Shown piece by piece: positions 1,127 through 41,613 of a stretch of DNA of 64,000 nt. The notes under the pieces are model-generated. The model saw nothing but the letters and a program-made list of their open reading frames with translations. It had not been told where the DNA came from and did not search any database. This DNA comes from Escherichia phage SUT_E420. A program made the translations under genes and the position numbers. The stretch lies in the sequence record OQ990039, one strand, 5' to 3'. Each line of letters begins with the position of its first letter. The first letter of the stretch is position 1.

Positions 1127-1155
1127 ATTATACAGAACTTTTGGAAACTAAGCAA
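1127..1155 (-). promoter_or_regulatory. sigma70-type early promoter (minus strand): -35 TTGCTT, 17-bp spacer, -10 TATAAT
   Basis: Plus strand reads ATTATA-N17-AAGCAA; member of a repeated promoter family; transcription leftward into tRNA-Cys and downstream genes. Confidence 0.7.
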
Positions 1156-1435
1156 CTACATTTTTTAAAAATTTGATGCCTTTCTTTTTCTTCTTATATT
1201 TCCACGTTAAGGGATTCTGTCGATTATGAACGCTTGAGATCTTTGTCTCGTCAAAGTTCTTCAATATCATGTAATCACAGGATAATTGTTCTAATGGAAT
1301 GTGATCACCGTCAAAAGCGTATACATAAGGCTGTTGACTAGCACGATAATGATAGACTTTGTTAATTCTACGTTTCAGCAACTTATCCGCGCAGTAAATA
1401 AAGAAGTTTTCAGGATGCATCAGCAGCTCCCTCAA
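1148..1435 (-). CDS. hypothetical protein (95 aa)
   Basis: ORF in track; basic C-terminus (KKKKKG); no motif. Confidence 0.35.
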   Translation of the reverse strand: MRELLMHPENFFIYCADKLLKRRINKVYHYRASQQPYVYAFDGDHIPLEQLSCDYMILKNFDETKISSVHNRQNPLTWKYKKKKKGIKFLKNVVA

Positions 1436-1440
1436 TTTGG

Positions 1441-1512
1441 TGCACCCTGTTCGTATCGAACGAACCTCTCAAGCTCTTCAGGCAAGCGCTAATCCATCTC
1501 AGCTAAAGGTGC
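1441..1512 (-). tRNA. tRNA-Phe-like (anticodon GAA), weak anticodon stem
   Basis: Perfect 7-bp acceptor GCACCTT/AGGGTGC, T-arm GTTCG-TTCGATA-CGAAC, D-loop with GG, anticodon loop CTGAAGA with U33 and purine 37; anticodon stem has two U-U mismatches; CCA encoded at 1438-1440. Confidence 0.55.
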
Positions 1513-1521
1513 AAATTTTGG

Positions 1522-1595
1522 CAAACCTACTAGGACTCGAACCTAGACCGTACGGTTTTGGAGACCGACATGCTGTCCAGTAACACTCTAGGAAT
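1522..1595 (-). tRNA. tRNA-Trp-like (anticodon CCA), non-canonical acceptor pairing
   Basis: Perfect T-arm CTAGG-TTCGAGT-CCTAG, D-loop GG, anticodon loop CTCCAAA; acceptor stem pairs only 5 of 7 (two U-U); CCA encoded at 1519-1521. Confidence 0.45.
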
Positions 1596-39661: not shown

Positions 39662-40151
39662 TTTCAAATTGCCCGTCTATACGTTACGGGCGTTTGTATC
39701 AATTGAGCAAGAAGGTGATTATTCCGTAATTACAACAAGATATAATAAATATGTGCTAGATAACAGGAAGTTGCCTGGCACGTTTTCTCAACGTAGGCTC
39801 ATTCTATTTGAGAAACGGAAAGAATTACCGTACAAGCTCTATCCTATTAGAGGTAGAATATCAATGTTGTCCCAATTAGTTGGGTCAAAGCGTAGCCAAT
39901 TTATAGATTCTGATGGAAATCTTATTAATTGGAAGAAAACTACGTTCTATGATGTTGTTACCTCTAAAGTTTTGAATTCAGCTAGAATTTATAACGGAAA
40001 ATACCAATGCTATGTAGCTAAAGTTCCATACCCATTTGTATTATCCTATGTTCCAGCTTATATAAGCTATATTCTGGTAAATAATAGCCCTGTTATTTAT
40101 CAAGTCCATCAAGAGGAGCCTGAAATTCCTAGACTTAGAATAAAATTATGA
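39654..40151 (+). CDS. hypothetical protein (165 aa, GTG start)
   Basis: AT-rich ORF between polymerase and helicase genes. Confidence 0.4.
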   Translation: MLDFKLPVYTLRAFVSIEQEGDYSVITTRYNKYVLDNRKLPGTFSQRRLILFEKRKELPYKLYPIRGRISMLSQLVGSKRSQFIDSDGNLINWKKTTFYDVVTSKVLNSARIYNGKYQCYVAKVPYPFVLSYVPAYISYILVNNSPVIYQVHQEEPEIPRLRIKL

Positions 40152-41500
40152 AGGTTGTTATATCTAATAAAGCCTATTTCAAGCCCGATGATGAACTTTG
40201 GGATTATTGTAGTAAGCAAACCACTTATCACATAGAGACAATGACTAGTAAATACCCTATTATGTATAAGAATAGTGGTGTTGTTGCTAAAGAGATTAAG
40301 TGGATTCCTATCACGCGTCTGGATTTATTAGATGCTAAAGGAGTAAAATACGAATTAGTAGATAAACGTACATTAGCTCCGGTAGATATACCAAAACCTA
40401 AGTTCAAGCTGCGTGAAGAAGACCAGCTCCCAATATATGAAGAGTGCGATGATACCTGTATTATTAATGGTAAGCCTGGGTTTGGTAAAACTATCCTAGC
40501 CCTTGCACTTGCGTATAAATTTGGCCAGAAAACTTTGGTAATCTGTACGAATACATCCATTCGTGAAATGTGGGCAGCAGAAGTTCGTAAATGGTTTGGG
40601 TTTGAACCGGGCATTATAGGTTCTGGGAAATACAATATTGATCCACCAATTGTAGTCAGTAATATTCAAACAGTGAATAAACATGCGAATAATCTTTCTA
40701 AAGTATTCGGTACTGTTATAGTTGATGAAGTTCACCATTGTGTGGCTACAACTTTCACCAACTTCCTAGAAATATCATGTGCTCGCTATAAGATTGGACT
40801 ATCTGGAACATTAAAACGGAAAGATGGTCTACAAGTTATGTTCAAAGATTTCTTTGGATATAAGATCTTTAGCCCACCGGTTAATAATACTGTTGCACCT
40901 ACAATCCATAGGTACTCCGTGCCTGTTGAGTTATCAGGAAACCAAAACGTACCATGGGCATTACGTGCTAATGATGTGTATAACCATCCTGAATATCGAG
41001 AGACTATTATAAACTTAGCACACTTATACGTGAATATGGGGCATAAAGTACTCATTGTAAGTGACAGAACAGAGTTAATCCAAACAGTACTAGAAGCTCT
41101 CGCACAGCGTGGTGTTACAACATATGAAATTATAGGGGCAACCCACTTGGATGACCGATTAAAAATTCAGGAAAATATAGCAAAAGGTGGGCCTTGTGTA
41201 CTTGCAGCAGCTCAAAGTATCTTCTCTGAAGGTATTTCCCTTAATGAGCTATCTTGTTTAATAATGGGGAGTCTCATTAATAATGAATCTCTCATTGAAC
41301 AGCTTGCAGGACGTGTTCAACGTATTGTCGATGGTAAACTCGACCCTATTGTTGTAGATCTAATTATGAAAGGTGGCACTGGACTAAGACAGGCTTCTGG
41401 ACGTATGGCAGTATATCGTAACAACGGGTGGAAAACTATTACCATGACTCCTGAGAAAGCAGTTCAATTAGCTAAAATTGCATTTGGCAACAGCTCATAA
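40148..41500 (+). CDS. SF2 DEAH-box helicase (T5 D10-like)
   Basis: 450 aa; Walker A GKPGFGKT, DEAH box VIVDEVHH, C-terminal helicase motifs. Confidence 0.7.
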   Translation: MKVVISNKAYFKPDDELWDYCSKQTTYHIETMTSKYPIMYKNSGVVAKEIKWIPITRLDLLDAKGVKYELVDKRTLAPVDIPKPKFKLREEDQLPIYEECDDTCIINGKPGFGKTILALALAYKFGQKTLVICTNTSIREMWAAEVRKWFGFEPGIIGSGKYNIDPPIVVSNIQTVNKHANNLSKVFGTVIVDEVHHCVATTFTNFLEISCARYKIGLSGTLKRKDGLQVMFKDFFGYKIFSPPVNNTVAPTIHRYSVPVELSGNQNVPWALRANDVYNHPEYRETIINLAHLYVNMGHKVLIVSDRTELIQTVLEALAQRGVTTYEIIGATHLDDRLKIQENIAKGGPCVLAAAQSIFSEGISLNELSCLIMGSLINNESLIEQLAGRVQRIVDGKLDPIVVDLIMKGGTGLRQASGRMAVYRNNGWKTITMTPEKAVQLAKIAFGNSS

Positions 41501-41512
41501 ATGATGTATAAT
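41484..41512 (+). promoter_or_regulatory. sigma70-type early promoter (plus): -35 TTGGCA, 17-bp spacer, -10 TATAAT
   Basis: Overlaps the end of the helicase gene; followed by the family leader. Confidence 0.6.
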
Positions 41513-41583
41513 ATATACATAAATTTGAGAGAGAAAGTTTCGGATTGATAAGAAAGTCCGAAGCAGAAAAATAAAAATTTTAG

Positions 41584-41613
41584 TTGCTAAATTCTCTCGA
41601 AATCTAGTATAAT
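41584..41613 (+). promoter_or_regulatory. sigma70-type early promoter (plus): -35 TTGCTA, 18-bp spacer, -10 TATAAT
   Basis: Second tandem promoter about 100 bp downstream of 41484-41512. Confidence 0.6.

Follow-up and report, generated by a model that had tools for sequence, protein, structure and literature searches.

Early promoters of phage T5 became known in the late 1970s and 1980s, and one of them, PN25, serves as the "T5 promoter" of common expression vectors. These promoters share an A-tract at -43, a -35 element TTGCT(T/A), a 17-bp spacer, a TATAAT -10 box, a discriminator of the ATATT type and ATAAATT at +1. Here we describe their counterparts in the 64,000-nucleotide stretch of Escherichia phage SUT_E420 held under record OQ990039 (the window, meaning the whole stretch analysed), where 24 strong sites of one promoter-like family lie between positions 1127 and 41613. 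In T5, all temporal classes are transcribed by the host sigma-70 RNA polymerase (RNAP), and the early promoters depend on sigma-70 and carry the discriminator ATATT (Klimuk et al. 2020, PMC7472727). Nineteen T5 promoters were defined by in vitro transcription (Gentz and Bujard 1985, as cited in PMC7472727), and Ppol and P15A show early kinetics (PMC7472727); no genome-wide mapping of T5 transcription start sites was found in our literature search. A second described system is that of the PeSL cassettes of T4-type phages (Arbiol et al. 2010, PMC2839356), where many near-identical strong sigma-70 early promoters are likewise spread over a region with numerous small non-essential genes.

The window is, judging by its sequence, the early-gene region of a Tequintavirus, a T5-like coliphage. 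In megablast comparisons, its segments 27000-33000 and 1-24000 matched Escherichia phages SUT_E1520/SUT_E520 at 100% identity and about 130-170 other Tequintavirus records at 95-99%, and the T5 early-region gene order is kept (tRNA block, nrdB-frd-thy, nrdA, nrdD, origin-binding protein, D2, D3, ligA/ligB, D5, helicase, primase, DNA polymerase, D10). The 24 family sites (15 minus-strand, 9 plus-strand) are very probably early-class promoters, read by the unmodified host sigma-70 polymerase when the bulk of the genome is inside the cell. This assignment is carried by several observations: the motif itself and its statistics, the orientation of the sites, their orthology to promoters annotated in T5, and the conservation of the motif in a second genus. 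The promoter set as such is already known, being that of the T5 early promoters in a close T5 relative. As a discovery it carries little weight, since these promoters are annotated in the T5 reference genome; its use lies in supplying a promoter map for a genome, that of SUT_E520/SUT_E1520, which has no regulatory features in its records.

Orthology was assessed by blasting the 75-bp "promoter" features of T5 RefSeq NC_005859 and T5 st0 AY692264 against the window (blastn-short). This alignment to the published promoters, proposed with the initial annotation, matched 22 of the 24 sites to a T5 feature, many of them with historical names (PN25, PN26, PK28a, PH207, PD/E33 and the P14-P16 series). 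The counterparts belong to the same genus and occupy the same genomic positions, with 86-100% identity site by site: 21 sites align at this level or lie under an AY692264 feature in a 100%-identical stretch, and the weakest match is that of 14543 (85.7%). Window and T5 differ in allelic detail only, namely the -35 and spacer of PN25, a duplication at 9507 and some flanking genes (extra open reading frames (ORFs) at 12751-13200 and 31987-32259, and the absence of the T5 homing-endonuclease genes hegI and hegH).

The abundance of the motif is far above chance. The exact pattern TTGCTW-N17-TATAAT occurs 15 times against 0.05 expected, a number reached by none of 100 shuffles, and a looser -35 with a spacer of 16-18 bp brings in further sites with the same flanks. 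The pattern TATAAT-N5-7-TAAATT occurs 13 times against 0.24 expected. A two-block position-weight matrix (PWM; -49 to -29 and -21 to +20, spacer 16-18), built from 23 sites aligned on the -10 box, scored 22 training sites at 33-63 and additionally recovered a site outside the training set, 41484, at 44.0; the best of 60 Markov-shuffled strands scored 19.9. The remaining training site, 21411, lacks the downstream core and therefore fell under the cut-off. The initial annotation had claimed at least 13 minus-strand and 9 plus-strand copies, and the PWM scan bears this out with 15 and 9; the first (1127-1155) and last (41584-41613) sites give the same end coordinates, and the scan detected no family site in the 42-64 kb part of the window. 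The near-invariant 17-bp spacer (17 bp in 21 of 24 sites, 18 bp in 3) and TATAAT (24 of 24) also held as described there, whereas TTGCT(T/A) is strict in 15 sites, the remainder having TTGCTC, TTGCCT, TTGCAT, TTGCAG, TTGCCA, TTGCTG, TTGGCA or TTACTA.

Minus-strand sites are confined to the minus-strand gene block (1-21.3 kb), and plus-strand sites to the plus-strand block (21.5-41.7 kb). Furthermore, every family site precedes an ORF, a tRNA or an RNA gene and points the same way as the genes downstream. It could be argued that an AT-rich genome yields such matches by chance, given that the window has a guanine-plus-cytosine (GC) content of 38% and that low-stringency sigma-70-like matches occur at shuffle frequency. 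Such an origin is virtually inconceivable and was already refuted by the shuffles: both exact patterns exceed expectation by the margins given above, the PWM scores stand more than 13 units above the best of the 60 shuffled strands, the strand co-orientation is perfect, and the sites are conserved in a relative with 45% GC.

Position-specific information in the 23 aligned sites spans about -46 to +13. The upstream A-tract noted initially is clearly present, with AAAA at -45 to -42 in 19-21 of 23 sites (A in 21, 19, 21 and 20, respectively), followed by T at -40 and -39 in 21 and 19. T-T-G-C occupies -35 to -32 in 19-23 of the 23 sites, the second half of the spacer is AAATT-rich, and the discriminator is AT-rich and ATATT-like, with A at -6 in 22 of 23. 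After TATAAT the consensus reads ATaT.taTAAATT.gagA, that is, aTAAaTT at +1 to +7 and then a purine-rich stretch. The base composition of N25 at -11 to -1 and +1 to +11 (PMC12464699) fits +1 as the A of ATAAATT, which places the conserved core at +1 to +7, after the discriminator.

The initial annotation had described a conserved leader, quoted as the 25-mer TAGATTCATAAATTTGAGAGAGGAG and ending in the ribosome-binding site. This 25-mer was found only once within 3 mismatches, at the PN25 copy; three other sites match it at 21/25, one at 20/25 and the rest at 3-19/25. What the sites do share is shorter, an element of 13-15 nt made up of the discriminator and the initial-transcribed core ATAAATT. 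At its end the downstream element has purine runs resembling GAGAGGAG, which stand 6-12 nt ahead of start codons, and the leaders are predicted to be essentially unstructured. Both features would suit an element that is mainly part of the mRNA, a short unstructured A/U-rich 5' leader recruiting ribosomes through S1 and a strong Shine-Dalgarno sequence, and not part of the promoter. We consider this improbable. The most conserved downstream positions are the discriminator and +1 to +7, not the Shine-Dalgarno sequence, and the ATAAATT core is kept before tRNA-Ser (3425) and before the non-coding RNAX (7994), where no translation follows, which argues that the core acts at the level of DNA or initiation. 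In addition, the +3 to +20 segment of N25 acts in promoter escape in purified transcription systems (PMC12464699). Its replacement ("antiDSR") lowered full-length RNA about 10-fold through slower escape (Kammerer 1986, as described in Hsu and Han 2025, PMC12464699), a change in RNA synthesis in vitro without ribosomes that already refutes a translation-only version. The AT-rich, purine-rich start of native N25 is described as evolved for fast escape (Hsu and Han 2025, PMC12464699).

A shared RNA structure in the leaders was considered and rejected. No common fold was found among them, most are unstructured, and the 5' AUAAAUU is unpaired in every prediction; 5 of 10 leaders have a minimum free energy of 0 to -2.5 kcal/mol, and the leader itself gave no significant z-score. 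The lack of a shared fold, the unpaired 5' ends and the recurrence of the consensus in Klebsiella phage IME260 agree with a promoter-level role of the core. The Shine-Dalgarno tail is present only where a coding sequence follows, so the translational role of the leader adds to the promoter role and does not compete with it. The two roles can coexist, and the mRNA role is unlikely as the sole explanation.

Phage IME260 (Sugarlandvirus, 45% GC) carries 20-21 co-oriented sites in its early region, with the same extended consensus and spacer length. As in the window, a tandem cluster lies upstream of the D11 homolog. The flanks are essentially unalignable to the window at the nucleotide level, and the -35 variants TTGCAA and TTGCCT are commoner. 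A full extended consensus shared with almost no nucleotide similarity points to selection for function, and its retention in a distant genus, transcript start included, supports selection on the discriminator and on the initial transcribed bases as promoter elements.

Published work on T5 suggests how the family may function. Each copy would be a composite of about 60 bp used by E-sigma70, with its start site, -43 block, discriminator and transcribed start acting as in T5. The A-tract at -45 to -42 and the TT after it would form a UP-element-like contact for the C-terminal domains of the alpha subunits, followed by -35 TTGCT(T/A), the 17 (rarely 18) bp spacer and a perfect -10 TATAAT; together, the upstream and core elements would give very fast and tight polymerase binding. 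The 6-nt AT-rich discriminator (ATATTC or AGATTC) and the purine-/AT-rich transcribed start, with ATAAATT from +1, would make melting and promoter escape easier. In front of protein genes, translation may be made efficient by the short unstructured leader and by a purine-rich Shine-Dalgarno sequence located 6-12 nt ahead of the start codon. About 27 promoters would in this manner cut about 42 kb into about 24 short units, so that early genes and tRNAs could be expressed in parallel at a high level.

Several points weigh against the assignment of the whole family to active early promoters. The use of each individual site in this phage is predicted from orthology, and primer extension in infected cells confirmed 11 of the 19 T5 promoters, with P15A barely visible (PMC7472727), so that some copies may be weak or conditional in the cell. 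The downstream core is weak or absent at 21411, 13509, 17172 and 30712, 21411 having none and 13509, 14543 and 17172 having poor ones. At the site 9507 (9507-9543), an 8-bp tandem duplication (TTACTAAG x2) has moved the original TTGCTA and A-tract 8 bp upstream; the in-register -35 is thereby lost, the hexamer now standing there being TTACTA, and the copy reaches only 1.2 in the upstream PWM block, where the other sites score about 20-26. This copy is a candidate for a natural down-mutation. Finally, a low-stringency scan for generic sigma-70 promoters and terminators was uninformative, with counts at shuffle level (for sigma-70, 48 vs 49.9, 56 vs 58.0 and 62 vs 61.4), so the evidence for the family comes from the specific extended motif and not from general promoter-likeness.

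The same features can also be read as a temporal-class tag. TTGC in place of TTGACA, the ATATT discriminator and ATAAATT at +1 would then be recognised by a phage factor, with the RNAP-binding gpT5.026 and the D5 DNA-binding protein as candidates, and would allow joint shut-down of the early promoters at the onset of late expression. T5 early and late promoters differ mainly in the discriminator (Klimuk et al., PMC7472727); gpT5.026 weakens RNAP contacts with -5/+2, and without it early transcripts go up and late transcripts go down (PMC7472727). Within the window, the P12 (4125), PnrdD (21491) and PK28b (33282) promoters have TTGACA and no core, as a distinct class would. A conserved C at -25, which known sigma-70 contacts do not explain, also fits a tag. 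Against this stands N25, whose behaviour in plasmids shows that the same features suffice for extreme strength with the host polymerase alone. We regard the tag as a tentative possibility, one that would supplement recognition by host sigma-70 polymerase and not replace it. The C at -25 (spacer position 5) was observed in 16 of 23 window sites and 13 of 20 IME260 sites, often within A-n-T-G-C-T right after the -35 hexamer, at a position outside the PWM used for site finding; it could mark an additional unrecognised contact or regulator site.

The promoter assignment can be followed site by site. On the minus strand, the P14b ortholog at 1127-1155 (97.3% over 75 nt; TTGCTT-17-TATAAT; PWM score 53.1) would drive a small ORF followed by tRNA-Cys, tRNA-Asn, tRNA-Asp and more ORFs, and the P14a ortholog at 1842-1870 (95.8%; TTGCTC-17-TATAAT; 53.1) would drive tRNA-Tyr, Glu, Trp and Phe. 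The P15c ortholog lies at 2213-2242 (97.3%; TTGCCT-18-TATAAT; 56.8). The P15b ortholog at 3425-3453 (98.7%; 46.9) keeps the TATAAATT core, its predicted transcript start being about 9 nt before tRNA-Ser (3409). The P15a ortholog at 3980-4008 (95.9%; 56.7) corresponds to the promoter and leader that head a nadR-pnuC cassette in Epseptimavirus. The P16-17 ortholog at 7994-8022 (61/61 identical; 58.6) would drive the non-coding "RNAX" region, tRNA-Arg and a lipoprotein gene, and the PD/E33 ortholog is located at 8667-8695 (94.7%; 62.5).

Further along the same strand, the duplicated copy at 9507-9535 is the ortholog of T5 43067-43141 (83-nt alignment against 75 nt in T5; PWM 33.6), and the site at 10842-10870 is that of T5 44393-44467 (95.9%; 61.5). 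PH207 has its ortholog at 12714-12742 (66/66 identical; 51.5). The sites at 13509-13537 (T5 46337-46411, 94.7%; 41.0) and 14543-14571 (T5 46937-47011; 44.7) are two of those with a poor core, and the latter has a strong hairpin upstream (z-score -3.7). The nrdB-frd-thy promoter lies at 17172-17200 (T5 50061-50135, 97.4% over 39 nt; 45.8) and the phoH-nrdA promoter at 21270-21298 (T5 53638-53712, 75/75 identical; 54.6). An upstream tandem promoter at 21411-21439 (TTGCCA-17-TATAAT, with A-tract) gave no blastn-short match to T5 and is a positional counterpart only, of T5 53776-53850.

On the plus strand, the site at 23466-23494 (T5 55708-55782, 95.5%; PWM 49.9) heads an 8-ORF unit, with a terminator hairpin at 23431-23455 directly upstream. 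A TTGCAG-17-TATAAT copy at 26518-26546 precedes the origin-binding-protein gene (T5 58999-59073, 97.3%; 52.2). The PN25 ortholog at 29686-29714, upstream of the D2 gene (ATG at 29746), has the highest PWM score of all (62.7). The PN26 ortholog at 30712-30740 (96% over 75 nt; 53.6) is located upstream of D3. Upstream of ligA, the site at 31928-31956 (T5 65284-65358, 70/70 identical; 50.6) is followed by an extra ORF of 277 bp between leader and ligA (indel 31977-32255). The PK28a ortholog at 33375-33403 (75/75 identical; 57.6) precedes ligB-D5-helicase-primase, and the DNA-polymerase promoter at 37378-37407, with an 18-bp spacer, is the ortholog of a putative promoter at 62954-63022 in T5 st0 (89/89 identical; 52.6).

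The last two plus-strand sites form a tandem pair 100 bp apart upstream of the D11 block, with only mini-ORFs downstream of each. The first, at 41484-41512 (TTGGCA-17-TATAAT and ATATACATAAATTTGAGAGAGAAAG; PWM 44.0), overlaps the end of the D10 ORF and was in neither the training set nor the exact-pattern list; it is 100% identical in T5 st0 and unannotated in AY692264. The second, at 41584-41613, has an 18-bp spacer, lies upstream of the D11-D15 block and is the ortholog of a putative promoter at 67535-67603 in T5 st0 (55.6). The whole tandem region, 41460-41660, matches T5 st0 at 201/201 positions, and the annotation of T5 st0 lists only the second promoter. A hairpin at 41539-41563 (z-score -3.76) follows the leader of the first promoter, and IME260 has three tandem copies (41196-41416) at the place equivalent to 41484-41613.

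The initial annotation had identified the stretch 29686-29750 with the classical PN25 promoter and leader. Identity is complete from about -14 to +30 (38/38, positions 38-75 of the feature), including the discriminator AGATTC and the transcribed ATAAATTTGAGAGAGGAGTT of N25, but the upstream part differs, and the overall match is 62/75. Upstream of -14 the window copy differs from T5 PN25 at 13 of 37 positions, including one A fewer in the A-tract; the -35 is TTGCAT against TTGCTT in T5, and the spacer is AGTGCAAAAAATTTCTG against TCAGGAAAATTTTTCTG. Natural variants of the N25 type, such as the -35 TTGCAT and the 8-bp spacer duplication, are available for strength comparison.

Two statements on promoter density proved too strong. 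Nearly every early gene or gene pair had been said to have its own copy; by our own count on the SUT_E520 gene calls, there are about 24 transcription units of 1-8 coding sequences (mean about 2.4), plus tRNAs. The density of about one promoter per 1.5 kb had been called unusual. The same PWM finds 24-27 sites each in the homologous 46-50 kb of T5, SP15, EscoHU1, bombadil and Gostya9, so this is the ordinary T5 layout.

The dispersed copies had also been suggested to drive recombination. As mobile regulatory cassettes of the PeSL kind, they would mediate the gain, loss and shuffling of early genes, which we consider doubtful. Among the dispersed repeats of the window, the promoters form the main family, with direct and inverted pairs reaching 50-79 nt at 72-87% identity. 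Indels were compared by chained blastn in all directions among the window, T5, SP15 and Gostya9 (Tequintavirus) and EscoHU1 and bombadil (Epseptimavirus). One clean case was obtained, and it provides a concrete gene cassette bounded by two promoter copies, as in the PeSL systems. In the two Epseptimavirus genomes, two P15a-like promoter-leader copies enclose a 2132-bp segment with a small ORF and genes for a pnuC-like transporter and a nadR-like adenylyltransferase (L004 15790-18130 and L005 16450-18800 in our comparison, against window 3930-4060). Only one copy is present in the window, T5, SP15 and Gostya9; its promoter and leader up to ATGA are those of the distal copy, and the coding sequence is that of the proximal gene. 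Moreover, four small-ORF indels start exactly at a leader end (31977-32255, 7826-7976, 1960-2193 and 23525-23902); these would be one-sided traces of promoter-anchored exchange.

Enrichment beyond the placement of promoters at gene boundaries was not observed. Both ends lie in promoter copies in only 1 of about 25-29 distinct indels across the six genomes, a small sample confounded by the position of promoters at gene boundaries. By our own tally, about 13 of 58 breakpoints fall within 15 bp of a promoter, which is not an excess, as nearly half of the gene boundaries carry one. Even in the nadR-pnuC case, the point of crossover or insertion falls within a microhomology of 6 bp (ATATGA) that closes the repeat, and HNH homing endonucleases explain several indels. 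Copy-copy recombination explains at most a small share of them, unlike in the PeSL systems. Orthologous promoters are 95-100% identical between phages and paralogs 60-85%, which gives no sign of concerted evolution or of recent transposition or spread and favours convergence or constraint on a functional consensus. The idea is possible, with thin support, since it comes down to a single example. That promoter-leader copies also act as homology anchors for modular early-gene gain and loss across Demerecviridae, PeSL-like but without the stem-loop and with nadR-pnuC as one instance, likewise seems rather unlikely.

A composite of promoter and hairpin, as in PeSLs, was rejected as a general feature of the family, which has no obligatory stem-loop partner. 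A strong hairpin within 70 nt upstream was found only at 14543, 23466, 26518, 31928 and 41584 (about 5 of 24), and the other 19 sites have none. The per-unit identity table across relatives shows mosaicism, and the one segment with a switch in nearest relative, 7994-8667, was examined as a candidate for a promoter-bounded mosaic module. It was rejected, as the switch there is a strongly divergent allele of a single ORF, 8031-8465, which has one edge next to a promoter and the other at a gene junction. This minus-strand ORF (144 aa) is a T5.081 homolog, similar to YqeY/"tRNA amidotransferase". Its identity to the five relatives is 45-80% in 25-nt bins, with both flanks at 92-100%, a pattern that marks it as a single-gene replacement.

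Three other plus-strand promoters in the region are of the TTGACA type without the downstream core and are therefore not members of the repeat family. They comprise the T5 P12 ortholog at 4125-4153 (96%; TTGACA-17-TAAAGT), the nrdD promoter at 21491-21519 (TTGACA-17-TATAAT, 12/12 consensus; 92% to the T5 nrdD feature) and the T5 PK28b ortholog at 33282-33310 (98.7%; TTGACA-17-TATACT, 11/12). They may constitute a separate regulatory class within the early region. Two borderline sites were found on the minus strand. The first, at 20117-20145 (TTGCCT-17-TAGAAT with A-tract), lies just upstream of nrdA and scores 20.8, about the random maximum. The second, at 57846-57874 in the late region (TTGATA-17-TATAAT, then AAAGAGGAGAAATTAACTATG; PWM 13.5), has no early core and may be a late-class promoter; upstream of it, at 57899-57923, lies a terminator-like hairpin.

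Several small ORFs are missing from some or all of the relatives compared: 12751-13200, 11880-12095 and 17207-17689 on the minus strand and 31987-32259 on the plus strand. Two of them adjoin promoters, one just upstream of PH207 and the other between the 31928 leader and ligA.

The window contains twelve runs of exactly 100 N (5911-6010, 27525-27624, 29064-29163, 38551-38650, 42797-42896, 43455-43554, 44192-44291, 44824-44923, 45694-45793, 46690-46789, 47262-47361 and 54082-54181). The same 77-mer stands on both sides of each run, with a start-to-start spacing of 177. This is the signature left when contigs with an overlap of k=77 are joined through 100 N, and it marks the window as a draft scaffold in which insertions of 177 bp are artefacts. 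Real sequence has been lost at 29064-29163, where about 650 bp are present in the relatives, and ORFs across the runs are broken or mis-sized. None of the 12 runs lies near a promoter site.

Two Rfam tRNA matches on the minus strand were not reported by ARAGORN. The match at 3240-3314 (40.3 bits) is at the position of T5 tRNA-Ile2(CAU) and overlaps an annotated ORF. The match at 7699-7770 (35.5 bits) lies inside a non-coding stretch of about 790 nt, which the T5 annotation lists as "RNAX, stable RNA with unknown functions" and where Gostya9 annotates tRNA-Ser. In the late region, a tandem array with a 21-nt unit was observed at 50958-51393, as 12 overlapping 100-nt copies that are in register and share 60-79% identity with the reference. 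The array is on the coding strand of a gene of this region and probably encodes a 7-residue peptide repeat in a structural protein.

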